A DNA stretch of 64,000 nt from Bradyrhizobiaceae bacterium (GTDB lineage Bacteria > Pseudomonadota > Alphaproteobacteria > Rhizobiales > Xanthobacteraceae), in the NCBI GenBank assembly GCA_044463945.1, contig JBIQLW010000019.1, positions 8,990 to 72,989 on the forward strand, read 5' to 3'. Numbering within the stretch: position 1 is the stretch's first letter; every line of letters begins with the position of its first letter. Of this stretch, positions 5,602 through 26,326 are shown one piece after another. The position numbers were made by a program, and so were the translations under genes. The notes under the pieces are model-generated. The model searched no databases and was not told where the DNA came from. It worked only from the letters and a program-made list of their open reading frames with translations.

Positions 5602-5804
5602 CGACGGAAACGTCGTCCTCATCTGCAGAATGTATCCAGAGCGGACCTGGGACGCCTTATAGGCGAAGTCTATCGGGATCAGATGAAGCAGGGACCAGTG
5701 CTGTGCATTCCGGCATCTTGCATTCAAGTATCTGATATATATGAAAATCTGCCATTCCTTATGGTATGCGGAATCCCATCGCGGCGGATTGCGCAAAAAA
5801 ATCT

Positions 5805-5833
5805 TGGATACATAAATTGACTTCTGGATACAT
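5805..5833. promoter_or_regulatory. Direct repeat TGGATACAT x2 (20-bp phasing) in an AT-rich stretch just upstream of the ABC operon; candidate operator/promoter
   Basis: TGGATACAT at 5805-5813 and 5825-5833, with TTGACT between them. It lies 49-77 bp upstream of the first permease start in the only AT-rich stretch of this region. Confidence 0.3.
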
Positions 5834-5881
5834 CTAGCTCAGTTTGCCCGCCAACTTCAGGCTGGGGTTGGGGAGGGGCCG

Positions 5882-6868: not shown

Positions 6869-6928
6869 CCACAACGCTTCATCCGCCGGCCGCGGCAAAC
6901 GGCCGTATTGAAACAAGGGAGGATAGAC

Positions 6929-7939
6929 ATGAGGACATCGATGAAACGGAATCTGCTGGCCGGCATCGGCCTTGCGGTCGCGGCCTGTCTGGTGGCGGCG
7001 TCCGCGTCGCAGGCGGCCGGGCCGCGCGAGCAGTTGCGCGAGAGCTTCGACAAGGCGCTGAAGGGCAAGACGGTCGCCTGGTCGCCGGTGTGGCTCGGCG
7101 TCCTCGAGTCGCAGTGGACCGAGGTGATGAAGTCCCGCTTCGACGACTACGGCATCAAGCTGATCACCCGCGACCCCAACATGAAATCCGATGTTCAGTT
7201 GCAGACGATCAGCGATTACATCAACGAGAAGCCGGACGTCATCGTCGTTCAGAACCCCAACGTCACCCTGCTGGCCCGCGAATTGAAGCGGGCGATGGAC
7301 GCGGGGATCTACGTGGTTCAGGTCAACATGGCCTCCAACACGCTGACCGATGCCTATGTCGGCGTCGATGCCTGGGACATGGGCCGCAAGCTCGCGCGCG
7401 AGGTGATCAGCGAGTGCGGCGGCGGCAAGGGCTCGGGCAAGATCGCGATCCTCGAAGGCGAGGCCACGGCGGCCTATTCCCTCGACATGAAGAACGGCGC
7501 GATGGAGGTGTTCAAGACCGATCCGTCGGTCAAGGTGGTCTCCTCGCAGCCCACGAGCTGGGACGCCAACAAGGCCGGCGACATCACCGCCACGGTGTTG
7601 CAGCAGAACCCGGATCTGTGTGCGATCTTGAGTGTCTGGGGGCCGCAGACCGCCGGCGCGGCACAGGCGATCAAGGCCGCGGGCAAGGGTGATCAGGTGA
7701 AAGTGTTCGTCGCCAGCGACGGCCAGCCGGCCGACTGCGATCTTCTGGAGCAGGGCGCTTTCTATCGCAACCTGTCCTATCGCGCCGACGTGCAGGGCCA
7801 GACCATCGCGGACGCCGTGATCGCGCTGCTTCAAAGCGGCGAGAAGCCGGGCAGCAAGAAGATCGCCTATTATTCCACGCCGGCCTGGGTGAAGTCGAAG
7901 GATGACCGGAAGTACTGCTTCTCGGTGTCCAAGAAGTAA
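6929..7939 (+). CDS. Periplasmic sugar-binding protein of the ABC transporter
   Basis: ATG at 6929 preceded by AAGGGAGGA. Signal peptide MRTSMKRNLLAGIGLAVAACLVAASASQAAG, then a PBP type-I sugar-binding fold. Confidence 0.9.
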   Translation: MRTSMKRNLLAGIGLAVAACLVAASASQAAGPREQLRESFDKALKGKTVAWSPVWLGVLESQWTEVMKSRFDDYGIKLITRDPNMKSDVQLQTISDYINEKPDVIVVQNPNVTLLARELKRAMDAGIYVVQVNMASNTLTDAYVGVDAWDMGRKLAREVISECGGGKGSGKIAILEGEATAAYSLDMKNGAMEVFKTDPSVKVVSSQPTSWDANKAGDITATVLQQNPDLCAILSVWGPQTAGAAQAIKAAGKGDQVKVFVASDGQPADCDLLEQGAFYRNLSYRADVQGQTIADAVIALLQSGEKPGSKKIAYYSTPAWVKSKDDRKYCFSVSKK

Positions 7940-8082
7940 CTTAAGGGCGCGAAGTCACTGACGGCGGCCCGCGCCGGACGCGACGCGGGCCTCCCGATCC
8001 GATCGAAAGCCGCTTTCATTTCTCCAGCCGACTCGTTTCTCAAGACGCCGGCCCCGCGCGGGCCGGAACCGGATTTGCGTCG

Positions 8083-10194: not shown

Positions 10195-10196
10195 GC

Positions 10197-11315
10197 ATGT
10201 CCCTCCTTGGCGATATCATCGATCGCGTGTTGTTTCCCAACCGCGAGATCCACGTCATCCCGGTGCTCGACGGCGCCTTCTCGCCGAACAAGCGGCTCGA
10301 TCAGGCCCGCCAGCTCGGCGGCGAGATCGCGCGGCCGGACGACATCGCCGCCGGTCCCGACGGTGCGCTCTACGTCTCGACCGGCAATGCCATCCTGCGC
10401 TGCACCGGCGCGGATTTCGAGACGCGCGAGACGTTCGCGACGCTCGGCGGCGCGGTCGGCGGTCTGGCGTTCGCGGCGGACGGACGGCTGCTGGCCTGCG
10501 TGTCCGGGCAGGGGCTGGTGGCGCTGTCGCCGGCCGGCAAGATCGTCGGCACGCTGGAGAATGTGGGCGGCGCGCGGATCGTCTGTCCGCTGTCGGTCGC
10601 CGTCGCGCCTGACGGCGCGATCTGTGTCACCGACGGCTCACGGCACAATTTGCCGGAGCAGTGGCTTGCCGACCTGATGCAGAACCGCCCGCCGTCCGGC
10701 CGGCTGATCGTCTGCAACGCGGCGCTCGGTGAGGCCCGCGTCCGCGCCGACAAACTTGCATGGCCGCTCGGCCTCGCGGTGTCCCACGACGGCAACGAGA
10801 TTCTGGTCGCCGAATCCTGGACCCATCGGCTCACCGCCTTCGCGCGTACCGGCACTGCCGCGCGCGTGATCGTCAGGAACTACAGCGGCTATCCGGCGCG
10901 CCTGTCGCGCGATGACGCGGGCGGTTACTGGATGGCGTTCTTCGCGCTGCGCACGCAACTCACCGAATTCGTGCTGCGCGAGCGGGCGTTCTGCGATGAA
11001 ATGATGCGGACGGTGCCGCCCGACCTGTGGATCGGCCCGGCGCTGGACGGGCGTATCAATCCGCGCGAGCCGACCCAGATCGGGCGGATCAAGAAGCTCG
11101 GGATTCAGAAGCCGTGGGCGCCGGCGCGCTCCTATGGGCTGGTGGCCCGGCTCGACGGCAGGGGCGAGGCGGTCGAGACGCTGCACAGCCGCGTCGATGG
11201 ACGGATCCACGGCGTCGTCGCCGTCCGGCCGGTCGGTGACCGCGTGGTGGCGGTCGCCAAGGGCCGCGACTGCCTGGTCGCGTTGCCGCCCGCCGGCGGC
11301 GCAAGGGAAGGGTGA
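10197..11315 (+). CDS. Stand-alone SMP-30/strictosidine-synthase-like beta-propeller protein (no signal peptide)
   Basis: ATG 3 nt after the previous stop. Blades such as PDDIAAGPDGALYVS, GLAFAADGRLLAC, SVAVAPDGAICVTDGS, LGLAVSHDGNEILVAESW, LSRDDAGGYWMAFF. The track ORF from 9825 is an out-of-gene N-terminal extension. Confidence 0.8.
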   Translation: MSLLGDIIDRVLFPNREIHVIPVLDGAFSPNKRLDQARQLGGEIARPDDIAAGPDGALYVSTGNAILRCTGADFETRETFATLGGAVGGLAFAADGRLLACVSGQGLVALSPAGKIVGTLENVGGARIVCPLSVAVAPDGAICVTDGSRHNLPEQWLADLMQNRPPSGRLIVCNAALGEARVRADKLAWPLGLAVSHDGNEILVAESWTHRLTAFARTGTAARVIVRNYSGYPARLSRDDAGGYWMAFFALRTQLTEFVLRERAFCDEMMRTVPPDLWIGPALDGRINPREPTQIGRIKKLGIQKPWAPARSYGLVARLDGRGEAVETLHSRVDGRIHGVVAVRPVGDRVVAVAKGRDCLVALPPAGGAREG

Positions 11316-11320
11316 GGATC

Positions 11321-12853
11321 ATGCCAGCGGAGAAAGGCGAGGTGTCGCCGCTGCTTCGGATCGTCAACGGCAGCAAGGTCTACGGCGGCCTTCACGCCAT
11401 CGATGGCGTCAATTTCGATCTGCGTCCCGGCGAGATTCACGCGCTGCTGGGCGAGAACGGCGCGGGAAAATCCACCCTGTGCAAGGCGATCGCCGGCGCC
11501 ATCGAACTGACCTCGGGCGATTACCTGATCGGCGGCGAGAAGGTGTCGTTCGCCTCGCCCAAGGAAGCGCTGGAGGGCGGCGTCGCGATGGTCTACCAGG
11601 AATCCAGCCTGGTCCCGTCGATGACGGTCGCGCAGAACCTCGAACTCGGCATGGAGAAATGGTTCACCGTCTACAGCAAGATCAACATCGCCGCGACCCA
11701 GTCGTTGCAGTCGATGAACTTCAACGTCGATCCGCTCGCTCTGGTCGAAACGCTGGGAACGGCGAAGCGGCAGATGGTCGAGATCGTCCGCGCGGTGCGC
11801 CACAACGCCAGGATCTTCATCTTCGATGAGCCCACGGCGTCGCTGACGCCGGAGGAGATGCAGCACCTGTTCCATCTGCTCAATACGCTGAAGGAGCGCG
11901 GCGCGGGGATCATCTTCATTTCGCACGCGCTTGAGGAAGCGCTCGACATTGCCGACCGCATCACCGTGCTGCGCGACGGCAAGCTGGTGGCGACCGTTCC
12001 CGCCGCGGGAATGACGCGCGACGCCCTGGTGCGCATGATGGTCGGCCGCGAGGAAACCGCGAGCCATTACGCGAGCCACGGCGCCGATCCCGACGCCGCG
12101 ACGCCGCGGGCAAAGCGCGGCGAGAAGGTGCTGTCGGTCGAGAACGTGACCATGGGCAGCATGGTCAAGAACATGTCGTTCTCGGTGTTCAACAGCGAGG
12201 TCGTCGGCATCTTCGGGCTGGTCGGCGCGGGACGCTCCGAGGTCGCGCAGATCGTCTGCGGCGCGCGCAAGCGCAACTTCCTGCGCGGCGGCATGATCTA
12301 TCTGCGGGACAAGCCGATCCGCTACCGCGTGCCGCGGCAGGCGGTGCGCGACGGCATCGCCTACATCACCGAGGATCGCAAGGTCGATGGTTTCTTCGAG
12401 ACCATGACCGTCGATCAGAACATCTATCTCGGCTATCTCGCCTCGCCCCGGGTCAAGCGTTTCCTGTATTCCGTGCGCGAGATGAAGCGCGTCGCCGATC
12501 ACTGGATCGCCGCGCTGTCGATCTCGGCCCTGAAGCGGTCGCTGAAGATCATCGAATATTCCGGCGGAAACCAGCAGAAGGTGGTGGTCGGCAAGTCGCT
12601 GGCGCAGGAGCCGACGGTGGTGATCTTCGACGAGCCGACGCGCGGCGTAGATGTCAGCGCCATTCCGCAAATTCACGCGGCGATCCGTAACCTCGCGGGC
12701 GAGAACAAGGCCGTGGTCGTGATCTCGTCCTACCTGCCTGAAATCCTCGCCATCTCGGATCGCATCCTGGTGGCGCGCGGCGGCCGCATCGTCGAGGAGA
12801 TGGCGCGCGCGGATGCGACCGAGGAGAAGATCATGTATGCCGCCATTCACTGA
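11321..12853 (+). CDS. Sugar ABC transporter ATP-binding protein (duplicated ATPase, RbsA-like)
   Basis: Walker A GENGAGKST, LGTAKRQMVEI, second half with YSGGNQQKVVVGK. Start ATG 11321 (alternative GTG 11312 overlapping the previous stop). Confidence 0.93.
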   Translation: MPAEKGEVSPLLRIVNGSKVYGGLHAIDGVNFDLRPGEIHALLGENGAGKSTLCKAIAGAIELTSGDYLIGGEKVSFASPKEALEGGVAMVYQESSLVPSMTVAQNLELGMEKWFTVYSKINIAATQSLQSMNFNVDPLALVETLGTAKRQMVEIVRAVRHNARIFIFDEPTASLTPEEMQHLFHLLNTLKERGAGIIFISHALEEALDIADRITVLRDGKLVATVPAAGMTRDALVRMMVGREETASHYASHGADPDAATPRAKRGEKVLSVENVTMGSMVKNMSFSVFNSEVVGIFGLVGAGRSEVAQIVCGARKRNFLRGGMIYLRDKPIRYRVPRQAVRDGIAYITEDRKVDGFFETMTVDQNIYLGYLASPRVKRFLYSVREMKRVADHWIAALSISALKRSLKIIEYSGGNQQKVVVGKSLAQEPTVVIFDEPTRGVDVSAIPQIHAAIRNLAGENKAVVVISSYLPEILAISDRILVARGGRIVEEMARADATEEKIMYAAIH

Positions 12854-12916
12854 TGTCATGAGCCATCGATGAGCGCTTTTCAGCAGCCCCGTTCGCGCAG
12901 GGAGCCGGGAGGGGAC

Positions 12917-13657
12917 ATGGACGACGATCCGGAGGACGGCCGCCTGATGAGCGAGCGCATCGCCGCCGAGATCCGTAGCGCAGTTCTGAGCGGCGAGATG
13001 CGGCCGGGAATGCGCATCCGGCAGGAACTGCTCGCCGCCCATTTCGGCGCCAGCCGCATTCCGGTGCGCGAGGCGCTGAAGCAGCTTGAGAACGAGGGTC
13101 TGGTGGTGATGGCGCCGAACCGCGGCGCCTGGATCGCGGACGTCAATTCGGACGAATCCATCGAGATTTACAAGATCCGCGAGGCGGTGGAGCCGCTGGC
13201 CATCGGCGAAAGCGTGCCGAACCTGACCGACGAGGACATCGATACGCTCGACGCCATCGTGCGCGAACTGGAGCACGTCCCGACGCTTGAGGAATACATC
13301 CAGCTCGATCGCGAGTTTCATCTGCGCACTTATGCGGGGGCGCGGATGCCGCAGCTTCTGGCGATGGTCGAGCGATTCTGGAACAGCACGCAGCATTTTC
13401 GGCGGTTGTTCGTGAAGGAAGCCTATGCCAAGGATGGATTCCCGTTCTCCGATCCCCAGCATCTGCTGTTGATGGATGCGATCCGGGCGCGCGACGTCGA
13501 TGCGGCGCAGATATTGGTGCGTCTGCATATCCGCAGAACGCGCCTCGTCATCGAGACGACGGAGAGGGGGACCAGCCGGTCGCCGGTGGCCAGCCGCTCC
13601 GTCGTGCGGCGCACCCCGCCGGGCCCGGTTTATCGAAGGAGAGACAGTCATGAGTGA
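12917..13657 (+). CDS. GntR-family transcriptional regulator (FCD C-terminal domain)
   Basis: GASRIPVREALKQLENEGLV winged HTH followed by an FCD-like helical domain. ATG 12917 has a GGGAGGGG RBS; alternative start 12869. Confidence 0.9.
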   Translation: MDDDPEDGRLMSERIAAEIRSAVLSGEMRPGMRIRQELLAAHFGASRIPVREALKQLENEGLVVMAPNRGAWIADVNSDESIEIYKIREAVEPLAIGESVPNLTDEDIDTLDAIVRELEHVPTLEEYIQLDREFHLRTYAGARMPQLLAMVERFWNSTQHFRRLFVKEAYAKDGFPFSDPQHLLLMDAIRARDVDAAQILVRLHIRRTRLVIETTERGTSRSPVASRSVVRRTPPGPVYRRRDSHE

Positions 13658-14525
13658 TTTTCAGAAGATCGGCGTGGTCGGCGCCGGCATGATGGGCTCC
13701 GAGATTGCCCTGATGTTCGCGCTCGCCGGCTATCCGACGCTGCTCAGCGATCAGTCGCGCGAGGCGGCCGAGCGCGCGATCGAGCGCCTTCACGGCGTGC
13801 TCGACCGCGGCCTGCCCCGGCGGTTCTGGTCGGAGGAAGCGGCGGCCACCGCGCGCCGCCAGCTTGCGGTCGCCGATAGCCTCGATGCCTATGCCGACCG
13901 TGACCTGGTGATCGAAGCGGTGTTCGAGGACGAGGCGCTGAAGCGCGACGTGTTCAAACGGCTCGACGCCATCGTCGCGCCGGGGGCGGGGCTGGCGTCC
14001 AACACCTCGTCGATCTCCATCACCACGCTGAGTTCGGCGGTGGCGGAGCCGCGCCGCGCCCGCTTCATCGGCACGCATTTCTTCTCGCCGGTGTCGCGCA
14101 TGAAACTGGTGGAGGTGATCCCGGCCGCCGACACCGATCCCGCCTTCGCCGATGCGGTGAGCGACGTCATGACCGCGATCGGCAAGGCGCCGATCCGCGT
14201 CAAGGACGTCGTCGGCTTCGCCGTCAACCGGCTGCTGCACGCGCTGGTGCTCGAATCGATCCGCCTCGTCGAGGAAGGCGTGTGCTCGCCGGCGGATATC
14301 GACGCCGCCTGCAAGCTCGGCCTCGGGCATCCGATCGGCCCGTTCGAACTGATGGACAATACCCAGAACTCGCTGTCGCTGAGCGTGCACGAGATTCTTC
14401 ATCAGGCTTACGGCGAGCGCTTCCTGCCGCGCCCGCTGCTGCGCCAGATGGTCGCCGCCGGCTATAACGGCCGCAAGGCGGGGCGCGGGTGGCATCGTTA
14501 CGGCAGCGACGGCAAGAAGCAATGA
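13650..14525 (+). CDS. 3-hydroxyacyl-CoA (3-hydroxybutyryl-CoA) dehydrogenase
   Basis: IGVVGAGMMGSEIA Rossmann motif, HFFSPV, C-terminal dimerisation domain; overlaps the GntR stop by 8 nt. Confidence 0.92.
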   Translation: MSDFQKIGVVGAGMMGSEIALMFALAGYPTLLSDQSREAAERAIERLHGVLDRGLPRRFWSEEAAATARRQLAVADSLDAYADRDLVIEAVFEDEALKRDVFKRLDAIVAPGAGLASNTSSISITTLSSAVAEPRRARFIGTHFFSPVSRMKLVEVIPAADTDPAFADAVSDVMTAIGKAPIRVKDVVGFAVNRLLHALVLESIRLVEEGVCSPADIDAACKLGLGHPIGPFELMDNTQNSLSLSVHEILHQAYGERFLPRPLLRQMVAAGYNGRKAGRGWHRYGSDGKKQ

Positions 14526-14572
14526 CAGCGGCGCCTCGAGCCGGCGCGCGCAACCGATAGCGGAGCATCGAC

Positions 14573-15880
<1,308 letters not shown>

Positions 15881-16048: not shown

Positions 16049-16513
16049 TCAGCCCGCGGGGCGCGGCGTGCCGGACGCCGCGCGGGTCTGCGTCCGGATC
16101 GCCGGCCACACCGTGCGCCGCCAGGCGGACGCGCCGGCGTCCCACGCCACCACCTCGCCCCCGCGCAGCACGAACCACTGCGGCGCGCCCGGCAGCGTTC
16201 GCACCCGCTCGCGCAAGCCCGCGAGATCGGCCGGCCACAGCGGCTCCGCCAGCAGGTCGCGCAGCCGTGTCGCGATCACTTCACGATAACGCAGGCCGGA
16301 AAATTCGCGGCTCTCCACGAATGACGGCCGCTCGTCGCGCCGCCAGGCGCGGCACGGCCCGCAATCCTCCGCGCCGACATAGACGACGGTGATCGCGCCG
16401 CGCCCCGCCGCCGGCTGATGCGGCACGTCGGCGACCAGCACCCCGCAGCCGAGCGCGAGCGCAAGGGCGGCAGGCAAACGGCGCGAGAGCAGGGGACGGG
16501 CGGCGACTGACAT
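16049..16513 (-). CDS. Secreted/anchored thioredoxin-fold protein with a CGPC motif
   Basis: Signal/anchor MSVAARPLLSRRLPAALALALGCGVL, then VVYVGAEDCGPCRAW; divergent from the oxidase cluster. Confidence 0.6.
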   Translation of the reverse strand: MSVAARPLLSRRLPAALALALGCGVLVADVPHQPAAGRGAITVVYVGAEDCGPCRAWRRDERPSFVESREFSGLRYREVIATRLRDLLAEPLWPADLAGLRERVRTLPGAPQWFVLRGGEVVAWDAGASAWRRTVWPAIRTQTRAASGTPRPAG

Positions 16514-16547
16514 CCGCACAGCCTAGAGCCGCATGGCGGTGTCTCAC

Positions 16548-16561: not shown

Positions 16562-16618
16562 GGCCGCGCGCCGCGAACGGTGGCAGCTTCCTGTCAAAGG
16601 GACGTGAGGAGCACCGCC

Positions 16619-16798
16619 ATGTCGAAGACCGCGAAGCCGCCCGGCGAGCCAGCCGCCGCCGACGATGAGCCCATGCCGTTCATGCAGCGGGTGCTCGACG
16701 ATCCGTTCCTGCTTCTGTTCATCGGCGTCACCATTCCCACGATCCTCTATCTCGTCTGGGGCGTGATGGAGATCGCCAACGTCCCGGTCGGCAAATAG
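16619..16798 (+). CDS. Small single-TM protein, putative accessory subunit of the oxidase
   Basis: ATG 16619 with a GAGGAG RBS: MSKTAKPPGEPAAADDEPMPFMQRVLDDPFLLLFIGVTIPTILYLVWGVMEIANVPVGK. Placement resembles the small subunits of ba3/cbb3 oxidases. Confidence 0.55.
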   Translation: MSKTAKPPGEPAAADDEPMPFMQRVLDDPFLLLFIGVTIPTILYLVWGVMEIANVPVGK

Positions 16799-16810: not shown

Positions 16811-17362
16811 ATGGCCATTACCTCTCCCGAACGCCGCGTCTGGTGGAACGAGCCGGTCGAGCGCGTCGAACTGATCTGGATCGCCGTGGCGCTGCTGTGG
16901 GGTCTGTTCATGTTCTTCTTCATGATCGCCTGGCACTTCATCGGCGGTCAGAATCTCGCAACCGAAGCCTACAAGGTGGTGCCGAGCGCCTATCAGGAGA
17001 AGGTCGACGCCTTCGCCGAGAAGTACCAGGTCGGCGACGAATCCGGCACGCCGATCGTGCGGCCGCCGGCCGGCGAAGATATCTATCTGCTCGGGCGGCT
17101 GTGGCAGTGGTGGCCGGTGCTGCAACTGGAAAAGGGCCAGAGCTACCGCCTGCATCTGTCGTCGGTCGACTGGCAGCACGGCTTCTCGCTGCAACCCACC
17201 AACATCAACATCCAGGTTCATCCCGGCTACGAGCACGTCATCGTCCTGACGCCGACCGAAGCCGGCGAATTCGGCATCATCTGCAACGAGTTCTGCGGCA
17301 TCGGCCATCACACCATGACCGGCAAGATCATCGTCGTCGATAGCAAGGCGGAGGCGAAGTAA
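16811..17362 (+). CDS. Heme-copper oxidase subunit II with CuA centre (single-TM, B-family-like)
   Basis: CuA ligands WQHGFSL ... CNEFCGIGHHTM; one N-terminal TM; 183 aa. Confidence 0.9.
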   Translation: MAITSPERRVWWNEPVERVELIWIAVALLWGLFMFFFMIAWHFIGGQNLATEAYKVVPSAYQEKVDAFAEKYQVGDESGTPIVRPPAGEDIYLLGRLWQWWPVLQLEKGQSYRLHLSSVDWQHGFSLQPTNINIQVHPGYEHVIVLTPTEAGEFGIICNEFCGIGHHTMTGKIIVVDSKAEAK

Positions 17363-17363
17363 C

Positions 17364-19088
17364 ATGACCACCTTCGAGGGCGTTGTGGCGGCGACGCGCG
17401 AGCGGGCCGCGAATTTCCGCACCTGCCAGTTCACCGGCCTCAAGGTCGATATCGCCGCGCAGCGGCTGATTATCGCCAACGCGGTCGCGGCCGTGGTGTT
17501 TCTCGCCGTCGGCGGCCTGATGGGATTGATGGTGGCGCTGACGCGCTGGCCGGCGGTGCATCTTCTGCCCGCCGAGTGGTTCTATCTGATCCTCACCGCG
17601 CACGGCGCCAACGTGCTGTTGTTCTGGATCATCTTCTTCGAGATCGCGGTGCTCTATTTCGCCTCCGCGGTACTGCTCAATTCGCGCATCGCGGCGCCGA
17701 AAACCGGCTGGCTCGGCTTCGTGCTGATGGTGGCCGGCGCCATCATCACCAACATCGCCGTGCTGCAAGGCGAATCGACGGTGATGTTCACCTCCTATCC
17801 GCCGATGATGGCGCGGCCGCATTTCTATCTCGGCATCATCCTGTTCGCGGTCGGCGCGCTGATCGGCGTCGGGCTGTTTTTCGCGACGCTGATGATCGCC
17901 AGGGCGGAGCGTACCTACGAGGGCTCGATCCCGCTGGTCACCTTCGGCGCGCTGACGGCGGCGATCATCGCCGTGTTCACGCTGGTGTCGGGGGCGATCA
18001 TCCTGGTTCCGACCATGCTGTGGTCGATGGGGCTGATCCGCGACATCGATCCGTTGATGTACAAGCTGGTGTGGTGGGCGATGGGCCACTCCTCGCAGCA
18101 GATCAACGTCTCCGCGCACGTCTCGGTGTGGTACATGATCGGCGCGCTGGTCTTGGGAGCCAAGCCGCTGTCGGAGAAGGTCAGCCGCGGCGCGTTCTTC
18201 CTCTACATCCTGTTCCTGCAACTGGCCTCGGCGCACCATCTGCTGGCCGAGCCGGGAATCAGCGCCGAGTGGAAGATCGTCAACACCAGCTACATGATGT
18301 ATCTGGCGGTGCTCGGCTCGATGATCCACGGCCTCACGGTGCCCGGCTCGATCGAGGCAGCGCAGCGCCGCAACGGTTTCAACCGGGGCGTGTTCGAGTG
18401 GCTGCGCAAGGCGCCGTGGGGCAATCCGGCGTTCTCCGGCATGTTCCTGTCGCTGGTGATGTTCGGCTTCATCGGCGGCATCTCCGGCGTGGTGCTCGGC
18501 ACCGAGCAGCTCAACGTGCTGATGCACAACACCATCTATGTCCCCGGCCACTTCCACGGCACGGTGGTCGCCGGCACCACGCTGGCCTTCATGGCCGGCA
18601 CCTATCTGGTGCTGCCGCTGATCTTCCAGCGCGACATCATCTGGCCGGGGCTGGCGCGGATCCAGCCGTACCTGTTCGGCATCGGCGCCGCCGGCATCTC
18701 GATGTTCATGATGGGGGCGGGCACGCTCGGCGTGGCGCGGCGGCACTGGGACATCAACTTCACCGACGCGGTGATCGGCTTCCAGCATTCGCCCGGCGCG
18801 TTCCTGATGATGGGGCTGAACGGCATCAGCGCCATCCTCGCGGCGCTCGGCGGCATCCTCTACATCCTGATCGTGGTCGGCACCGCGTTGTTCGGCAAGA
18901 AGATCGTGCCGGGCCACAAGATGACCTTCCCGCTGCATTCGAGCGCCAACGTGGTGTCGAAATACGGCAGCGAAGGCACGATCAAGCTGCCCGGCACCAT
19001 CGTTCTGGTGACGATCTTCTTCCTGTCCTTCGTGCTCTATTACTTCGTCAACTGGAAGTATCTGTCCGACCTGTGGCAGTTCCGCTGA
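17364..19088 (+). CDS. Heme-copper oxidase subunit I, divergent (B-family-like); canonical cross-link Tyr position is Gln
   Basis: All six His ligands present: LTAHGANV, WWAMGHSSQQI, LASAHHLL, YVPGHFHGTV. GHSSQQ replaces GHP(E/I)VY. Confidence 0.93.
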   Translation: MTTFEGVVAATRERAANFRTCQFTGLKVDIAAQRLIIANAVAAVVFLAVGGLMGLMVALTRWPAVHLLPAEWFYLILTAHGANVLLFWIIFFEIAVLYFASAVLLNSRIAAPKTGWLGFVLMVAGAIITNIAVLQGESTVMFTSYPPMMARPHFYLGIILFAVGALIGVGLFFATLMIARAERTYEGSIPLVTFGALTAAIIAVFTLVSGAIILVPTMLWSMGLIRDIDPLMYKLVWWAMGHSSQQINVSAHVSVWYMIGALVLGAKPLSEKVSRGAFFLYILFLQLASAHHLLAEPGISAEWKIVNTSYMMYLAVLGSMIHGLTVPGSIEAAQRRNGFNRGVFEWLRKAPWGNPAFSGMFLSLVMFGFIGGISGVVLGTEQLNVLMHNTIYVPGHFHGTVVAGTTLAFMAGTYLVLPLIFQRDIIWPGLARIQPYLFGIGAAGISMFMMGAGTLGVARRHWDINFTDAVIGFQHSPGAFLMMGLNGISAILAALGGILYILIVVGTALFGKKIVPGHKMTFPLHSSANVVSKYGSEGTIKLPGTIVLVTIFFLSFVLYYFVNWKYLSDLWQFR

Positions 19089-19202: not shown

Positions 19203-20861
19203 ATGCGCGCCGTGCTGACCACGACCGTATCGCTGCTCAAGCTGCGCATCGGCATCGCGATCGCCGCCAGCGCGGTCGCGGGCGCGGCGGCGGCGCAGGG
19301 CGCGGCGCGCGAGGCGTGGGAGGTGCTGGCGCTGGCGCTCGCGGTGCTCGGCGCCTCGGGCGCGGCCGGCGCGTTCAACCACTATTACGAACGCGACCTC
19401 GACCGCCACATGCGGCGCACCGAGAGCCGGCCGTTCGCCAGCGGGATGTTGCGGCCGGGCGCGGGGTGGCTCACGGCCTTCGCCGCGCTCGCGGTGCTGT
19501 CGCTGGCGCTGGCCTATGTCGTCGGCGGCGCGGTCAGCGCCGTCTACGTGCTGCTCGGCGGCCTGACCTATGGCGTGGTCTACACCGTGTGGCTCAAGCG
19601 CCGCACGCCGATGAACATCGTGGTCGGCGGGTTGTCCGGCAGCTTCGCCGTGCTGGCCGGCGCGGCGGCGGTCGATCCGATGCCGCAGACGGTGCCGGTG
19701 CTGCTGGCGCTGGTGCTGTTCCTGTGGACGCCGCCGCATTTCTGGGCGCTCGCCGCGGCGCGCCGCGACGACTACGCCAATGCCGGCTTCCCGATGCTGC
19801 CGGTGGTCGCGCCTGAGCGGGTGTGGACCACGGCGATCCTCGCCCACACCGCGGCGCTGACGGCGCTGTCGCTGGTGCCGCTATGGTTCGGCATGGGGCT
19901 GATCTACGGCATCGGTGCAGGCGCTGGCGGCGCGGTGTTCGTGTGGCGAAGCTGGCGGCTTTACCGCGCGCCGAGTCGCGCCACCGCGATGGCGACCTTC
20001 GGCGCGTCGCTGATCCACCTCACATTGCTGACGCTGGCGGTGGTGCTGGACGCGGCGGTGGTGACCAAGGCGTCGGCCACGCCGGCCGGCGGAGCGCTCG
20101 ATCCGCGCGTCGTGCTGGAGCGAAGCGAGGCGGCGATCGGCACGACGCTCGGCGATTACACGCTGCGCGATCCGCAGGGCCGCCGCATCGCGCTGGCCGA
20201 TTATCGCGGCCGCCCGCTGGTCATCAGTCTGGTCTACTCTAGTTGCAGCACCACCTGCCCGGTGACGACGCAGCATCTCATCGACGCGGTGGCGCAGGCG
20301 CGCCAGAGTCTCGGGGCCGACCGCTTCGCGGTGCTGACCATCGGCTTCGACGCGCGCCGCGACAGCCCGCAGCGCATGGCGGCGTTCGCCGGCCGGCAGG
20401 GCATTCCGGCCAGCGGCTGGGACGTCGCCTCCGGCGACGAGGCGACGCTGGCGGCGCTGATGCGGGATCTCGGCTTCGGCTATCAGGCGGTCGCCGGCGG
20501 TTTCGATCACATCGCCCAGACCACGATCATCGACGCCGGAGGGCGAGTCTACCGTCAGGTCTACGGCGACGACTTCCCGCTGCCGGTGTTCATCGAGCCC
20601 TTGAAGGAAGCAGTGTTCGGCATCACCACCCGCGCGCTGACCGTCTCGGCGCTGATCGACCGCTTAAGTTTCCTCTGCACCGTCTACGATCCCGGACAGG
20701 GCCGCTACCGCACCAGCTACGCCATCGCGCTCGGCATCGGCATCGGCGCCCTGTCGCTGCTGATCGCCGGCATCGTCTTCGTCCGCGCCTGGATGCGCAA
20801 CCGCCGGCTGGAAGCGTTGCGCCGGGTTCCGCCGCCGCGGCTGCTCGGACGACAGACATGA
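19203..20861 (+). CDS. ctaB: Fusion protein: heme O synthase (protoheme IX farnesyltransferase, UbiA family) + SCO1/SenC copper chaperone domain + C-terminal TM
   Basis: FNHYYERDLDRHMRRTESRPFASG (CtaB/CyoE motif) and multiple TMs. Then RPLVISLVYSSCSTTCPVTTQHL (CxxxC) ... GGFDHIAQTTIID (Sco His), then TM AIALGIGIGALSLLIAGIVFV. Confidence 0.9.
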   Translation: MRAVLTTTVSLLKLRIGIAIAASAVAGAAAAQGAAREAWEVLALALAVLGASGAAGAFNHYYERDLDRHMRRTESRPFASGMLRPGAGWLTAFAALAVLSLALAYVVGGAVSAVYVLLGGLTYGVVYTVWLKRRTPMNIVVGGLSGSFAVLAGAAAVDPMPQTVPVLLALVLFLWTPPHFWALAAARRDDYANAGFPMLPVVAPERVWTTAILAHTAALTALSLVPLWFGMGLIYGIGAGAGGAVFVWRSWRLYRAPSRATAMATFGASLIHLTLLTLAVVLDAAVVTKASATPAGGALDPRVVLERSEAAIGTTLGDYTLRDPQGRRIALADYRGRPLVISLVYSSCSTTCPVTTQHLIDAVAQARQSLGADRFAVLTIGFDARRDSPQRMAAFAGRQGIPASGWDVASGDEATLAALMRDLGFGYQAVAGGFDHIAQTTIIDAGGRVYRQVYGDDFPLPVFIEPLKEAVFGITTRALTVSALIDRLSFLCTVYDPGQGRYRTSYAIALGIGIGALSLLIAGIVFVRAWMRNRRLEALRRVPPPRLLGRQT

Positions 20862-22426
20862 TCGCCCTGGTGCGCCGGGGCATCGCGCGCGGATTCGACG
20901 CCGCCGAGCGCGGCCTCAACCGTCTCGCCGGTCCGGCGCTCAACCCGCTGGCGCAACTCGGCGCGCTCGGCTTCTTCCTGTTCTGGATCGTCGCGGTCAG
21001 CGGCATCTACCTGTTCATGCTGTTCGACACCGGCGTCGAGAACGCCTACGCGTCGGTCGAGTGGTACTCGACGCGCCACGCCTGGCACGCCGGCGTGATG
21101 CGCAGCTTCCACCGCTACGCCTCCGACATGATGGTCGTGGTGATGGCGCTGCATCTCTTGCGGGAGTTCGCGCGCGACCGCTATCGCGGGGCCCGCTGGT
21201 TCTCGTGGTTCACCGGCGTGCCGGTGATCTGGTTCCTCTACATGTCGGGCATCACTGGCTACTGGCTGGTGTGGGACCAGTTGGCGCAATACATCGCCAC
21301 CACCTCGACCGAACTGCTCGACTGGCTGCCGATCTTCGGCGAGCCGATCGCCCGCAATTTCCTGGCGCCGTCGAGCCTGTCGAACCGCTTCTTCACGCTG
21401 CTGGTGTTTTTGCACATCGCGGTGCCGCTGGTGCTGCTGTTTACGCTGTGGATCCATATCCAGCGCATCACCCGGCCCAAGGTGAACCCGCCGCGCACGC
21501 TCGCGGCGCTGACCATGCTGGCGCTGCTCGCGGTGTCGATCGTCAAGCCGGCGCTGAGTCAGGGCGCGGCGGACCTTGCGAAAGTGCCGAGCCCGGTCGG
21601 GCTCGACTGGTTCTATCTGCCGCTCTATCCGCTGGCCGACGATTCGCCCGGCGCGCTGTGGGGGCTGCTCGCGGCGGCGACCGTGATGCTGGCGGCGATG
21701 CCGTGGCTGCCGCCGCTGCGGCGGATGAAGCCGGCGACCGTCGATCTGGATCATTGCAACGGCTGCGGCCGCTGCGTCGAGGACTGCCCCTACGAGGCTC
21801 TGCAACTGGTGCCGCGCACCGACGACCTGCCCTATGAGCTTGAGGTCGCGGTCAATGCCGACAAATGCGTGAGCTGCGGCATCTGCACCGGCTCGTGCCC
21901 GTCCTCGACGCCGTTCCGCAGCGTCGGCCCGCTCGATACCGGCATCGACCTGCCGGACGTCACCTTCGCCTCGATGGGCGAGCGGCTCCATGAACTGGCC
22001 GCGCGGGACGCGCCGTCGCCGCGTTTGCTGGTGATCGGCTGCTGGCACGGCGCGGCCGGGGCGCGCGACGAAAGCACCCTGTCGCTGCCGTGCGTATCCG
22101 CCGCCCCGCCGTCGCTGATCGATTACGCGCTGAGCCGCGGTCTGGCCGATGGCGTCGTCATCGCCGGCTGCTCCGAGAGCGCCTGCTACAACCGGCTCGG
22201 CGTCGCGTGGATGCAGCAGCGCATCGCCGGCGAGCGCGACCCGTATCTGCGGGCGCGGGTGCCGCGCGATCGTATCCTCGAGGTGTGGGCCTCGCCGACC
22301 GAGGGCGCGCGGCTGACGCGCGAGATCGACGCCTTCAGAGCGCGGCTCGCCGCGCTTGCCGAGGAGCCGCCGCCACCACAGCAGGTTACCGGGACGCCGG
22401 CGAGCGTCAGGGAGGCGGCATCGTGA
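20858..22426 (+). CDS. Fusion protein: diheme cytochrome b (6 TM) + 2x[4Fe-4S] ferredoxin + MvhD/FlpD-like hydrogenase iron-sulfur domain
   Basis: ATGA overlap with the ctaB::sco stop. Two H-x13-H pairs (FHRYASDMMVVVMALH; LHIAVPLVLLFTLWIH). CNGCGRCVEDCP and CVSCGICTGSCP. C-terminal LLVIGCWHG...LPCVSAAPPSLIDYALSRGLADGVVIAGCSESACYN. Confidence 0.85.
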   Translation: MIALVRRGIARGFDAAERGLNRLAGPALNPLAQLGALGFFLFWIVAVSGIYLFMLFDTGVENAYASVEWYSTRHAWHAGVMRSFHRYASDMMVVVMALHLLREFARDRYRGARWFSWFTGVPVIWFLYMSGITGYWLVWDQLAQYIATTSTELLDWLPIFGEPIARNFLAPSSLSNRFFTLLVFLHIAVPLVLLFTLWIHIQRITRPKVNPPRTLAALTMLALLAVSIVKPALSQGAADLAKVPSPVGLDWFYLPLYPLADDSPGALWGLLAAATVMLAAMPWLPPLRRMKPATVDLDHCNGCGRCVEDCPYEALQLVPRTDDLPYELEVAVNADKCVSCGICTGSCPSSTPFRSVGPLDTGIDLPDVTFASMGERLHELAARDAPSPRLLVIGCWHGAAGARDESTLSLPCVSAAPPSLIDYALSRGLADGVVIAGCSESACYNRLGVAWMQQRIAGERDPYLRARVPRDRILEVWASPTEGARLTREIDAFRARLAALAEEPPPPQQVTGTPASVREAAS

Positions 22427-22935
22427 GCGCGCCGGTGTCAGTGCCGCGGCTGGCCGGGCTGTTCGTCGTGCTGGCGGCGGTGACGGCGTTCGCCGCCGCC
22501 TTCTCCAATGCGCCGGCCTACCGGCAGATTCCCGCCGATACCGGCGTCATCAAGTTCAGCTTCAGCCACAGCGCCGACCGCGCGCGGGAGTGCCGCCGCC
22601 GCACCCCGGAGGAGCTGGCGAAGCTGCCGCCCAACATGCGCCGGCCGCTCGATTGCCCGCGTACCCGGCGCGGCATTTTCGCCGAGCTTGCGATCGACGA
22701 CGTCGTGGTGTTCAGCGCGGAATTGCCGCCGTCCGGCTTCGCCAAGGACGGCCCCTCGCAGATTTATCGCCGCTTCACGGTGGCGGCCGGCTCCCACACC
22801 GTGGCGGCGCGCTTGCGCGATACGCCGCGCGAGAGCGGCTTCGACCATGAGCGCATCGAGACGGTGACGGTCAAGCCGGGGCAGAGCCTGGCGCTCGATT
22901 TCCGCCCCGAGCACGGCGGCTTCATCTGGCGTTAA
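22423..22935 (+). CDS. Membrane-anchored hypothetical protein, last gene of the oxidase cluster
   Basis: GTG 22423 overlapping the previous stop, GGAGG RBS, N-terminal anchor LAGLFVVLAAVTAFAAAF, no recognisable domain. Confidence 0.55.
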   Translation: MSAPVSVPRLAGLFVVLAAVTAFAAAFSNAPAYRQIPADTGVIKFSFSHSADRARECRRRTPEELAKLPPNMRRPLDCPRTRRGIFAELAIDDVVVFSAELPPSGFAKDGPSQIYRRFTVAAGSHTVAARLRDTPRESGFDHERIETVTVKPGQSLALDFRPEHGGFIWR

Positions 22936-22970: not shown

Positions 22971-22984
22971 TTGACATGGCGCAA
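22971..22984. promoter_or_regulatory. Crp/Fnr (FixK-type) box upstream of the cluster-linked Crp/Fnr regulator
   Basis: TTGAC-ATGG-CGCAA (one mismatch to TTGAY-N4-RTCAA), centred 67 bp upstream of ATG 23045. Confidence 0.35.
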
Positions 22985-23044
22985 TGCCGGCGCGGCGAGG
23001 CCGTGCTTGGCTGGCGCATTGCTGCTGCCTGCCGGGAGCCCGTC

Positions 23045-23827
23045 ATGACCCCCGCCGACTGGTCGATCGTCAACCGCGTTCCCGTGTTCCGCTCGATGGG
23101 CGAGGCGCTGAGCCATCGCATCGTCCGCAACTATGCGCGCGGCGAGTTGCTGTTTCAGCAGGGTGATCCGGCGACCTGCTGCTTCCTGGTGCTCGACGGC
23201 TGGGTCAAGCTCTACCGGCAGACGGCGGACGGCGACGAGGTGGTGGTGTCGCTGTTCACCGCCGGCGAAAGCTTCGCCGAAGCGATGATGTTTCGCGGCG
23301 GCCGCTACCCTGCGACGGCGGAGGCGGTGACCTCGGTGCGGCTCCTGCACATCGACGGCCAGTTGCTGCGCGACGCCATCCTGCGCGATCCGCAGCTTTC
23401 GTTCGACATGCTGGCGGCATCGTCGCTGCACCTGCGGCGGCTGGTCGAGCAGGTCGAGCAGTTGAAAGCGCAATCGGCGCCCAAGCGCATCGCCAGCTTC
23501 CTGCTCTCGCTCACCGCCGCCCGTCGCGGCCCGGCGCGGATCGAACTGCCTTACGAGAAGCTGCTGATCGCCAACCGCCTCGGCATGAAGCCCGAGAGCT
23601 TTTCGCGGGCGCTGCGGCAGCTTCGCGCCGTCGGCGTCTTCGTCGAGCGCGAGTTCGTTCGCATCGATGACGTCGGCCGCCTATCCGGCTTTGTCGAAGG
23701 CGGCGAGCCGGACGGCGTGCCGTGCCCGATGATCCGCACCCCGGCGCAATGCGGCAGCTTCGGCGCCGGCTGCATCGAGGCCGCCTATCGCGCGCCGCTG
23801 CGCGCCCCGCGCCGCTCGCGCGCGTGA
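23045..23827 (+). CDS. Crp/Fnr-family transcriptional regulator with a Cys-containing C-terminal extension
   Basis: cNMP-binding-like beta-roll (LFQQGDPATCCFLVLDGWVKLYR), HTH LIANRLGMKPESFSRALRQL. Tail ...GVPCPMIRTPAQCGSFGAGCIEAAY. Start 23045 preferred over 22976, which overlaps the box. Confidence 0.88.
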   Translation: MTPADWSIVNRVPVFRSMGEALSHRIVRNYARGELLFQQGDPATCCFLVLDGWVKLYRQTADGDEVVVSLFTAGESFAEAMMFRGGRYPATAEAVTSVRLLHIDGQLLRDAILRDPQLSFDMLAASSLHLRRLVEQVEQLKAQSAPKRIASFLLSLTAARRGPARIELPYEKLLIANRLGMKPESFSRALRQLRAVGVFVEREFVRIDDVGRLSGFVEGGEPDGVPCPMIRTPAQCGSFGAGCIEAAYRAPLRAPRRSRA

Positions 23828-24014: not shown

Positions 24015-24638
24015 TCAGGCTTGATCCTTCAGCGCGCCGCCGCGCAGCGCCAGCCGGATCAGTTCGGACAGGCTGTGCGCCTGCATCTTGGTCATGACGT
24101 TGGCGCGATAGACCTCGATGGTCCGCGGGCTGATGTCGTGCTCGCGCGCGATCTGCTTGTTGGAGAGGCCGGCGATCAACCCGTCCATCACCTGCCGCTC
24201 GCGCGGGCTGAGGCTGGCCAGCCGCGCGGCGATGTCCTGCGCGGCCGCCTCGCTGCGCAGCCGGTCGTCGGCCTGCCTGAGCGCGGTGTCGATGGTCCCG
24301 ATCAGGCGCTCGTCCTCGAACGGCTTTTCGACGAAATCGAACGCGCCGAGCTTCATCGCCTCGACCGCCAGCGGAATGTCGCCGTGGCCGGTCATGATGA
24401 TGACCGGAAGCGTCGAGGCTTCGTTGCGAAGGCGGCGCAGCAGCGTCATGCCGTCGATGCCCGGCATCCGCACGTCCGACACCACGCAGCCGAAGGGCAG
24501 CGTCGCATGAACGTCGAGGAAGCTCGCGGCGCTGTCGAACAGCGCGACGTCGAAGCCCGCCGCGCCGAGCAGGAAGTCGAGCGAATCCCGCATCGCGGGA
24601 TCGTCGTCGATGACGTAGACGCTGGCGTTACGCGACAT
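24015..24638 (-). CDS. fixJ: Two-component response regulator FixJ
   Basis: [14 protein letters not shown]...[10 protein letters not shown] receiver plus LuxR-type [25 protein letters not shown]; overlaps the fixL stop. Confidence 0.95.
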
Positions 24639-26187
24639 CCGGCAGGTCCTCGTCCGGCGCGGCCGGCAGCGTCAGGTGAAACGTCGCGCCGCCGGCGGCG
24701 TTGTTCTCTCCCCACATGCGGCCGCCGTGCGCTTCCACGATCGACCGGCTGATTGAAAGCCCGACCCCCATGCCTGTGTCCTTGGTGGTGAAGAAAGTCT
24801 GAAACAGGTTGGCGAGCGCCACCTCGCTGAACCCGTGGCCGGTGTCCATCACCGACAGCGCGACCGTGTCGTCGGCGGCGCGCGCGCTGGACACGATCAG
24901 TTCGCGCCGCGCTACGCCCGCCATCGCCTCCAGCGCGTTGCGGAACAGGTTGACCAGAACCTGCTGGATCTGCACCCGGTCGACCAGCACGCGGTCACAC
25001 GTCGGATCGAGTTCGGAGCGCAGCATCACGTTCTGCTCGCGCGCGCCGGACAACCCCAGCGCGCCGGCTTCCTCGACCAGCCTGGCGAGGCTTTCGACGC
25101 GCTTTTCGGACTCGCGCCGGCTGACGAAATCCCGCAGGCGGCGAATGATCTGGCCGGCGCGCAGCGCCTGCTCGGCGGCGCGATCCAGCGCCATCCCGAC
25201 GCGGGCGGCATTGGGATCGGGGCTTGTCTCAAGCAGGCGGCGCGATCCCTTCATGTAGTTGCTGATGGCGGCGAGCGGCTGGTTGAGTTCGTGGGCCAGC
25301 GCCGAGGCCATCTCGCCCATGGCGCTCAGCCGCGAGACGTGGATCAGCTCCGATTGCAGTTCCTGAAGTTTTGCCTGGGTCTGCTGGTGCTCGGTGAGGT
25401 CGCGCACGAAGCCGGTGAAATGCCGCTCGCCGCCGGCGGTCATCTCGCCGACCGACAGGTGCATGGGAAAGGTCGAGCCGTCGCGGCGCTTTCCAGTGAC
25501 GATGCGGCCGATGCCGATGATGTGGCGTTCGCCGGTGGATTTGTAGCGCTCAAGGTAGCCGTCGTGCCGGCTGCGGTCCGGCTCCGGCATGAGAATGCTG
25601 ACGTTCTGCCCGACCGCCTCGGCTTCGGAGAAGCCGAACAGCCGCTGGGCGGCGGAGCTGAAGCGCTGGATGATGCCGTGGTCGTCGATCACGATCATCG
25701 CGTCCGGAACGGTATCGAGGATCGAATGGAGATGGCCCTCGCGTGCGCGCAACGCCTCCTCCAACTGCTTCTGATCGTCGATATCGAGCACCGCGCCGCA
25801 TACGCGGACGGGCGTGCCGTCCTCGTTCCTGACCAGGCCGCCGCGGGCGCGCACCCAGCGGCTTTTTCCGGACGTCTTGCGCAGCCGGTACTGAAGATCG
25901 AATCTAGCGCCTGTCTCGACGGTCCGTTGCAGCGCGGCCCGCGTGCGCTCCTGATCGTCGGGGTCGAGCCGCGACAGGAAAAGATCCAACGTCACCGCGG
26001 CGTCGGGCGCGACGCCGAACAACTGCCGCGCCGCGTTGGACCAGAACAACTCCCCGGTGGCGAGCGCAAGGTCCCAGATGCCGATGCCCGATCCGTCGAT
26101 GCCGCGTTGCAGATCGCGGTCGAGAAACAGCCCGCTCAACGCGGTTGAGCCGTCGTCGATCTCGGCGGTGGTGTTTCGGTGAGGCAT
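24628..26187 (-). CDS. fixL: Oxygen-sensing heme-PAS histidine kinase FixL
   Basis: Near-identical blocks to Bradyrhizobium FixL as remembered: [42 protein letters not shown] (heme His), [35 protein letters not shown]-box. Start MPHRN at 26187. Confidence 0.95.
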
Positions 26188-26326
26188 CGCGTCATGGGTC
26201 CGCAGGCTTCGAAGACACATTCTCACTTGCCCGTCGCGGTCAGCATATCGCCGGAGGGGCGGGCGGACCAGAGCGGCAGCGGGGGACGATCGGTCGCGGG
26301 CGAGGGGCCGCCGTTGCCATCCCGCG

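Follow-up and report, generated by a model that had tools for sequence, protein, structure and literature searches.

A bc-type dihaem cytochrome b fused to ferredoxin and FlpD-like domains in an eNOR-like operon of a Bradyrhizobiaceae bacterium

Haem-copper enzymes of the eNOR type are reported to be among the commonest nitric oxide (NO) reductases in nature and hence a source of nitrous oxide (N2O) (Murali et al. 2024, PMC11214002). Here, we describe a fusion gene in an eNOR-like operon of a Bradyrhizobiaceae bacterium (GenBank assembly GCA_044463945.1, contig JBIQLW010000019.1, positions 8,990 to 72,989, forward strand). This whole stretch of 64,000 nucleotides (nt) is called the window, and positions are counted within it. 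The gene (20858 to 22426, + strand) encodes a 522-amino-acid (aa) protein in which a bc-type dihaem cytochrome b is joined to two [4Fe-4S] ferredoxin motifs and an MvhD/FlpD-like domain. A preliminary description of the window, made from the sequence alone, was correct in every sequence detail of the fusion; it overlooked the gene immediately downstream, here called X, which is the obligatory partner of the fusion.

The fusion gene and its partner

The frame is free of stops for 522 codons (translation of 20858 to 22426). As listed, the open reading frame (ORF) opens upstream at TTG 20243; we take ATG 20858 as the real start because 120 homologues of 506 to 555 aa align to the 522-aa version from residues 1 to 5, and those of 521 to 524 aa do so from residue 1. 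The ATG overlaps the TGA of the upstream ctaB::sco gene as ATGA (20858 to 20861), and the fusion stop overlaps the GTG of X as GTGA (22423 to 22426), so that sco, fusion, and X are chained. The translational coupling to the oxidase genes that had been proposed thus holds for ctaB::sco; the oxidase subunits themselves are uncoupled, with 114 nt between the end of subunit I (19088) and the start of ctaB (19203).

The cytochrome b part (residues 1 to 290, helices A to F; 20858 to 21727) was matched by Pfam Cytochrome_B (PF00033) over residues 26 to 203 (E = 1.4e-20), and the closest solved protein by sequence was cytochrome b6 (6rqf_I in the PDB; E = 1.4e-18). An AlphaFold model of the fusion was built from 46 sequences (predicted local distance difference test score, pLDDT, 89.9; predicted template modelling score, pTM, 0.87), and the top Foldseek matches of its first ~285 residues were bc1 cytochrome b, helices A to F (about 283 to 290 columns, E = 2e-8). 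Hydropathy and the model agree on six transmembrane (TM) helices, as described earlier, and the two H-x13-H pairs, H85/H99 and H186/H200, are kept in 99 to 100% of 111 family representatives, from which all conservation figures given here were taken. By homology with b6, it is strongly predicted that H85 and H186 ligate the haem on the P (periplasmic) side and H99 and H200 the haem on the N (cytoplasmic) side. The segments rich in K and R are the N terminus, the B-C loop, the D-E loop, and the stretch after helix F, which argues for an N-in and C-in topology; hydropathy and charge distribution therefore predict a cytoplasmic Fe-S part, in line with the earlier proposal. The cd-loop GYWLVWDQ resembles that of b6 (GYxLxWDQ motif). 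At the PEWY position, the fusion reads LDWFY (xDWFY in the family), with D250 as the acidic residue and the Pro lost, and this Asp is kept in 98 to 100% of the representatives.

NCBIfam contained no model specific to the fusion, and its best matches all fell far under their cut-offs: ExtP matched residues 34 to 206 (E = 4.3e-30, 105 bits against a cut-off of 290), and ExtQ, also far under its cut-off, matched residues 217 to 292 (E = 1.1e-7). No curated family for the fusion was found in Pfam or NCBIfam. Pfam gave no match to NarI-type cytochromes (PF02665), the CCG domain (PF02754), or CtaA, and Pfam and NCBIfam gave none to NosR, NapH, or CcoG domains beyond the generic Fer4 motifs. Annotation pipelines name both the fusion and X generically or misleadingly (e.g., 'hydrogenase iron-sulfur subunit').

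The soluble C terminus bears out the three-module architecture in Pfam. Two Fer4 motifs lie inside residues 293 to 350 (E = 1.7e-11), with the pattern CxxCxxCxxxCP at C300/303/306/310 and C337/340/343/347 (21734 to 21907), and all eight Cys are kept in 96 to 99% of representatives. The MvhD/FlpD-like domain (22022 to 22360) was recognized above the curated cut-off (PF02662, residues 408 to 500, E = 3.5e-9, 37.2 bits against 22.3). It carries a putative [2Fe-2S] site, C395, C412, C438, and C443 (conserved in 94, 92, 91, and 74%, respectively), the last three of which line up with conserved Cys of the solved MvhD (5odc_D). Residues 293 to 501 together match the C-terminal Fer4 and MvhD part of HdrA2 (NF040770, 572 to 772; E = 6.9e-15, under the NCBIfam cut-off); neither the operon nor the related loci examined contained HdrA or Mvh/F420-non-reducing hydrogenase genes. 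A single continuous redox chain is strongly predicted, comprising the cytoplasmic [2Fe-2S], the two [4Fe-4S] clusters, the N-side haem (H99/H200), and the P-side haem (H85/H186).

Gene X (22423 to 22935, + strand, GTG start) encodes 170 aa. By tblastn and blastp, it matched ORFs downstream of other fusions and the C-terminal extensions of longer forms (E = 1e-25 to 1e-37); 565 homologues were detectable, one of them 100% identical. X lies downstream of the fusion, or is joined to it, in 61/61 loci. In the long forms of ~690 aa, it is fused to the C terminus of the fusion via a seventh TM helix after FlpD. The protein is predicted to have an N-terminal TM anchor (N-in) and a periplasmic beta-sandwich (AlphaFold pLDDT, 91). 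H49 is invariant, as is C78-P-R-x-R within a very basic loop, and C57 is nearly invariant. No Pfam or NCBIfam family matched X, and no cofactor signature was found in it apart from the invariant His and the basic conserved loop. Its two Cys probably form a disulfide, since both vanish together in one lineage (L062).

Two other assignments at this position were rejected. X as a copper protein or cupredoxin was dropped: Foldseek returned only generic beta-sandwiches like those of immunoglobulins and carbohydrate-binding modules, no Met is conserved, and the Cys are co-lost in L062. The ORFs 22508 to 22867 (119 aa) and 22356 to 22850 (164 aa) are wrong-frame artefacts, the real gene being 22423 to 22935.

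The eNOR-like operon and its relatives

A word-indexed search recovered more than 5,400 relatives of the fusion among 8,000 scored candidates, and when all representatives at 50% identity were searched exhaustively, 522 clusters reached E ≤ 1e-30. Carriers include Hyphomicrobiales, Rhodobacterales, Zetaproteobacteria, Gammaproteobacteria, Gallionellaceae, Myxococcales, Bdellovibrionales, and Thermodesulfobacteriota-like contigs; the nearest relatives of the window are Xanthobacteraceae metagenome-assembled genomes. Matches of the cytochrome b part in Deinococcus and on other plasmids proved to be ordinary Rieske/cytochrome b complexes and were set aside.

Co-occurrence with the oxidase type, which the preliminary description had named as a test, was examined from both sides. 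On the fusion side (58 genomic loci plus contigs of distant representatives), subunit I of the same type lies upstream on the same strand in every one of the 44 loci whose upstream sequence reached 3.6 kb; two Gallionellaceae loci added later are without it, giving 44/46 overall. An sco gene ends at most 400 nt upstream of the fusion in 54/56 loci. On the subunit I side (80 metagenome loci, subunit I at least 63% identical), the fusion is present in 29 of the 31 loci with enough downstream sequence; both exceptions end after Sco, with a type I restriction system next in one. A dihaem cytochrome b fused to Fe-S or flavin modules, together with X, is thus an almost fixed part of eNOR-type operons in alpha-, beta-, gamma-, zeta-, and 'delta'-proteobacterial lineages. 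The proposed tie to enzymes lacking the cross-linked Tyr is not strict: a distant member (P0264, 30% identity) directly follows a B-type oxidase with the Tyr-containing motif GHPLVY. This arrangement is seen at locus L069 (273 to 4903), where the distant member is 792 aa long and no Sco lies between it and the oxidase.

The haem-copper subunit I of the window (17364 to 19088, + strand; PF00115, E = 1e-62) has Thermus thermophilus ba3 as its nearest solved structure (E about 1e-42). GHPIVY of ba3 aligns with GHSSQQ(IN), so that a Gln stands where the cross-linked Tyr sits (His+4) and an Asn at His+6; GH-x-SQQ-x-N is invariant in the 43 related loci. All six metal and haem His are retained, among them the HH pair and, as haem ligands, the HxH motif. 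Replacement of the cross-linked Tyr by Gln is diagnostic of eNOR, and sNOR and bNOR have Asn there (PMC8756737). The zetaproteobacterial and Gallionellaceae enzymes of such operons are also named eNOR in the literature. Because of this naming and the Gln diagnostic, we label the window enzyme eNOR-like (a B-family-derived type), on a comparison made with ba3. An sNOR assignment (norSY-senC-orf1 of ammonia oxidisers), suggested by the link to Sco, was dropped as the primary label, given the Gln at His+4 and the literature's use of eNOR for this operon type. In Nitrosomonas, the gene after senC is NE0681, which rises 2.2-fold when O2 is limiting; none of the matches in our homology searches carried a Nitrosomonas or Nitrosococcus name.

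Subunit II (16811 to 17362, + strand; TIGR02866, E = 1.1e-11) carries a complete CuA motif (H..CNEFCGIGHHTM). The operon is headed by a small single-TM ORF of about 58 aa from its ATG (16622 to 16798, + strand; listed as 16580 to 16798), which has a counterpart in this place in most related loci (36 to 90% identity) and whose product may be a small subunit resembling subunit IIa. Between subunit I and the fusion lies ctaB::sco (19203 to 20861, + strand; TIGR01473, E = 5.4e-74; PF02630, E = 1.4e-12), in which haem o synthase (CtaB) and the copper chaperone Sco (CSTTC motif) form one 552-aa polypeptide with a TM helix after the Sco domain. In many relatives, ctaB and sco are separate, or ctaB is elsewhere or absent. 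Downstream of X are a Crp/Fnr-family regulator, FixK/FtrB-like (22976 to 23827, + strand; PF00027, PF13545; NF006901, E = 9.6e-32), and a FixLJ-like pair of a LuxR-type response regulator and a PAS histidine kinase (24015 to 26226, − strand). The Crp/Fnr regulator and this pair suggest low-oxygen control.

A divergent gene upstream (16049 to 16519, − strand) encodes a 156-aa protein with a signal-like N terminus and a CGPC thioredoxin motif. It is kept in place in the nearest relatives (L002 to L011, L016, L017, L040, and L048), had no NCBIfam match, and could reduce Sco or CuA in the periplasm in the manner of TlpA.

The 16.0- to 24.7-kb interval contains no Rieske, cytochrome c1, or soluble cytochrome c gene, as had been noted before, and the gene tables of related loci likewise list no Rieske protein or c-type cytochrome beside the fusion; the unrelated Deinococcus locus, which served as a control, does show a Rieske and cytochrome b pair. 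By tblastn, nirS, NnrS, hemerythrin, cupredoxin, PCuAC, and CtaG were all absent from the window. Elsewhere (L059, L061, L063, and L064), the neighbours include NO-related genes: NnrS, a hemerythrin-domain protein, nirS, an Rrf2 regulator, a cupredoxin, PCuAC, and CtaG.

The cytoplasmic module of these cytochrome b proteins is exchangeable. In the same slot after Sco, cytochrome b (49 to 56% identity) is fused to flavodoxin-FAD-NAD modules (P0156) or to Fer2-FAD-NAD modules (P0158). In the same operon slot, P0194 and P0218 are cytochrome b::X proteins with no cytoplasmic module at all, and P0220 is a single chain of Sco::cytochrome b-Fer4. Five further entries (P0139, P0223, P0188, P0129, and P0143) that looked like 'cytochrome b-only' architectures were rejected as frameshifted, having Arg-rich, wrong-frame C-terminal halves.

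Several related loci show larger rearrangements. In L041 to L053 (Zeta- and Gammaproteobacteria), two tandem cytochrome b-Fer4-FlpD genes lie between Sco and X and are followed by a short subunit I paralogue. This paralogue (454 to 498 aa) was located at L049 10253 to 11620, L059 4020 to 5516, L061 3244 to 4638, L071 1821 to 3308, L072 8230 to 9624, and L153 15489 to 16853. It keeps the haem His and the first CuB His, has lost the HH pair, lacks a subunit II of its own, and had no NCBIfam match. In the Gallionellaceae loci L072 (3985 to 11536) and L073 (180 to 7733), the module occurs without eNOR I and II and with a dihaem cytochrome c instead; the order is dihaem cytochrome c, Sco, cytochrome b-Fer2-FAD-NAD, X, short subunit I paralogue, cytochrome b-Fer4-FlpD. 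The gene caller seems to have missed or split the cytochrome b portion of the FNR-type gene in L072.

The window operon has ctaB and no ctaA (Pfam/NCBIfam). CtaA, too, is a membrane protein with haem b and depends on an electron donor. The fusion might act in haem tailoring, making haem a or As from haem o, or feeding electrons for it, in place of CtaA. The subunit I paralogue without the HH pair, a haem-binding protein that often accompanies the module, would suit this role, as would the haem As reported for eNOR and the CtaA reported in many eNOR operons (Murali et al. 2024, PMC11214002). Many clusters, however, keep the fusion and lack ctaB, and the fusion shows no similarity to CtaA. We regard haem tailoring as the least probable of the roles weighed here.

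Possible roles of the fusion

Our literature search turned up no functional study of this protein, so the preliminary statement that no characterised member was known stands; Murali et al. 2024 (PMC11214002) do not mention it. The gene had already been seen in a May-2026 preprint on the eNOR operon of Ferrigenium straubiae (bioRxiv 10.64898/2026.01.22.701106). So far as the literature was searched, the near-universality of the fusion, partner X, and module swapping are undescribed. The preprint gives the gene order as eNOR II, eNOR I, haem o synthase, Sco1, a cytochrome b-[Fe-S]-FAD-NADH protein, a hypothetical protein (probably X), an 'eNOR scaffold protein' (its name for the short subunit I paralogue), PerM, and a cytochrome b-[Fe-S] protein. 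It terms the two cytochrome b genes 'rather unusual', proposes that they form a quinol:NAD+ oxidoreductase joined to eNOR in a supercomplex, and reports all operon proteins in the proteome. In its data, the two cytochrome b proteins have an 'average expression' of 26.2 and 23.9 (47 to 620 transcripts per million, TPM), Sco1 has 24.7 (320 to 350 TPM), and eNOR I/II have 31.6 (2,100 to 15,000 TPM); the 'average expression' values are quoted here without a unit, and the TPM values are for transcripts under denitrifying growth.

The reading that we favour, tentatively and at less than even confidence, is that the fusion would be an auxiliary transmembrane electron conduit of low flux, running from the cytoplasm to the periplasmic face and serving the metal centres of the enzyme together with Sco and X. 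Sco, the fusion, and the periplasmic X would form a conserved accessory module of eNOR-type operons, with the fusion as its membrane redox subunit. A cytoplasmic reductant, either ferredoxin or a partner of the MvhD-like domain, would load the Fe-S domains of the window protein; in the sister proteins, NAD(P)H would do so via the fused flavin reductases. Electrons would pass from the N-side to the P-side haem, aided by the membrane potential, and exit at a P-side pocket that matches the Qo or Rieske-docking region, next to the membrane-anchored X, Sco, and the CuA subunit. Copper or thiol centres of the oxidase would thereby be kept or put in a reduced, assembly-competent or active state, with no bulk respiratory feed. 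This role may be likened to those of the membrane Fe-S proteins NosR and CcoG, which the copper enzymes N2O reductase and cbb3 oxidase, respectively, need in order to become or stay active.

We infer that electrons move outward because the NAD(P)H-flavin modules that replace Fer4-FlpD oxidise NAD(P)H in characterised enzymes, and because the membrane potential favours that direction. The target would be the periplasmic face shared with X, Sco, and the CuA subunit, to judge from the operon coupling and the Rosetta-stone fusions (P0220; P0194 and P0218). The topology is self-consistent: long forms add a TM helix after FlpD and before X, free X is N-in, and the TM helix of Sco precedes the N terminus of cytochrome b. 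The scale appears auxiliary rather than bulk respiratory, because the Ferrigenium values place the cytochrome b proteins at a Sco-like level, far below eNOR I/II.

The near-obligate co-occurrence of fusion and enzyme, seen in both directions, also bears on a larger role, in which the fusion would serve the CuA enzyme as its principal subunit for electron input. The haems would be supplied by a cytoplasmic donor or by quinol in the Qo-like pocket and would themselves supply CuA or, directly, the low-spin haem of subunit I. Fusion and enzyme would then amount to a quinol- or NAD(P)H/ferredoxin:NO (or O2) oxidoreductase complete in itself. The operon's lack of Rieske, c1, and cytochrome c genes is consistent with such a role, as are the retained Qo-like motifs, the pairing of two fusion copies with two subunit I paralogues in zeta- and gammaproteobacterial clusters, and the NO-stress neighbours (NnrS, hemerythrin, nirS, and Rrf2) in related loci; a variant with an added cytochrome c domain (cytochrome c, b6, Fe-S, and FlpD in one ORF, RME88945.1) is listed in an appendix table of PMC8756737. 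The preliminary description went as far as calling the fusion the only candidate electron-input module, and here we disagree: a complete CuA motif normally takes electrons from periplasmic carriers encoded elsewhere, so the intact CuA subunit could use soluble carriers, and the Ferrigenium data put the cytochrome b proteins at Sco-like expression, orders of magnitude under eNOR I/II. Moreover, one cluster retains the module without eNOR I/II, the obligatory partner X has no evident redox cofactor, and a single fusion can go with one subunit I pair (L061 and L071). Electron input is accordingly ranked weaker than the auxiliary conduit, and we think it unlikely.

Several observations weigh against the auxiliary conduit itself. 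GYxLxWDQ and xDWFY (Asp in 98 to 100%) are kept more strictly than a wire needs, and this conservation of Qo-type motifs suggests a quinol or quinone substrate at the P side. Cytoplasmic input is not universal, since cytochrome b::X forms without a cytoplasmic module exist. No cofactor motif is apparent in X, and in L062 both of its Cys have gone. Other CuA enzymes require Sco too, although the module is confined to one enzyme lineage; in one Gallionellaceae cluster, Sco, X, and the two cytochrome b proteins occur with no CuA subunit in the vicinity, and one distant member has no adjacent Sco. The expression ratios come from one organism, and membrane-protein proteomics is biased. Function and direction, finally, are read from sequence, models, and operon context.

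A Qo-type pocket kept without a Rieske protein, together with fused low-potential Fe-S or NAD(P)-binding modules, would also fit a quinol-bifurcating or reverse-electron device. Such a device would resemble a Q cycle without a Rieske protein: the Qo-like site would oxidise quinol and split its electrons, one going to the very high-potential haem-copper enzyme (via Sco, X, or CuA) and the other being driven through the haems and the Fe-S or flavin module to ferredoxin or NAD(P)+, so that NO or O2 reduction would pay for ferredoxin or NAD(P)H. The carriers include lithoautotrophs that need reverse electron flow (Zetaproteobacteria and Gallionellaceae). In bc complexes, however, the b haems lie far above the potentials of [4Fe-4S] clusters and NAD+, and inward flow opposes the membrane potential. 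Most of the carriers found are heterotrophic Hyphomicrobiales without a need for reverse flow, and diflavin and Fer2-FNR modules normally run NAD(P)H electrons outward. The hypothesis was put forward in the Ferrigenium preprint (bioRxiv 10.64898/2026.01.22.701106), whose values also show the low abundance of these proteins, and a similar idea has been put forward for anammox Rieske/cytochrome b complexes (PMC12954380). We consider bifurcation improbable.

The same layout, with a P-side quinol-type pocket, two haems, and cytoplasmic Fe-S clusters, would suit an inward loop of the NarGHI, HdrDE, or DsrMK kind, in which quinol on the periplasmic side would feed the haems, the cytoplasmic Fe-S clusters, and lastly a cytoplasmic acceptor. 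MvhD-type domains do pass electrons to partner enzymes in Hdr complexes. None of the operons examined, however, encodes a catalytic cytoplasmic subunit or a CCG domain, the NAD(P)H-reductase variants point the opposite way, and an inward loop leaves the tie to Sco, X, and the oxidase unexplained. It seems to us slightly less probable still than bifurcation.

Any of these readings would add a component to models of NO and N2O metabolism, be it in the redox upkeep of copper centres, in a dedicated electron supply, or in energy coupling, and the fusion would be a rare bc-type cytochrome b operating without a Rieske protein. If bifurcation proved true, respiration would gain a novel type of electron bifurcation, and iron oxidisers and other lithotrophs a novel path for reverse electron flow. 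The auxiliary conduit and its alternatives bear on the electron supply and assembly of eNOR-type enzymes, which are environmentally important NO reductases.

Comparison with known systems

The membrane part is closest to the cytochrome b of bc1 and b6f complexes (PF00033), with which it shares the fold of helices A to F and the two H-x13-H pairs; its GYxLxWDQ resembles that of b6, and a conserved acidic residue stands at the PEWY position. It differs in having xDWFY for PEWY, in lacking helices G and H, and in an operon without Rieske or cytochrome c1/f; moreover, a cytoplasmic Fe-S extension stands where bc complexes have the Qi side open. The C-terminal part resembles MvhD and the HdrA2 C terminus, as the match of residues 293 to 501 and the three aligned Cys indicate, but it occurs without HdrA flavoprotein, HdrBC, or hydrogenase, and the domain is tethered to a membrane cytochrome.

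The Ferrigenium 'Cytbc1-like proteins 1 and 2' (bioRxiv 10.64898/2026.01.22.701106) share the same operon grammar, and protein 2 shares its IMG name with most homologues of the fusion; the window, in contrast, has the Fer4-FlpD type only, and the likeness is drawn from domain content, gene order, and name. ExtP and ExtQ, the cytochrome b pair of the Geobacter selenite/tellurite-reduction operon, are the best NCBIfam matches, but their scores lie far under the cut-offs, their operon context is another, and they have no Fe-S fusion.

The HdrE/HdrD and DsrM/DsrK likeness drawn in the preliminary description holds at the level of function. HdrDE, DsrMK, and NarI-NarH also wire a dihaem membrane cytochrome to cytoplasmic Fe-S clusters, but they do so with NarI-type cytochromes and separate CCG or NarH subunits, whereas the fusion has bc1/b6-type helices A to F with xDWFY, no NarI-type cytochrome, and no CCG domain, all in one chain. 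The sister flavin variants recall NOX/FRE/STEAP and MsrQ-Fre, in which NAD(P)H reduces a flavin, two stacked b haems, and an outside acceptor in turn; the membrane fold is unrelated, and the window protein has Fe-S instead of flavin modules. NosR, NapH, and CcoG are likewise membrane proteins with two cytoplasmic [4Fe-4S] motifs, and they are encoded beside a periplasm-facing copper enzyme that depends on them for its activity or assembly. They have no haem-b cytochrome domain and a non-homologous membrane part, so that their likeness to the fusion is functional only.

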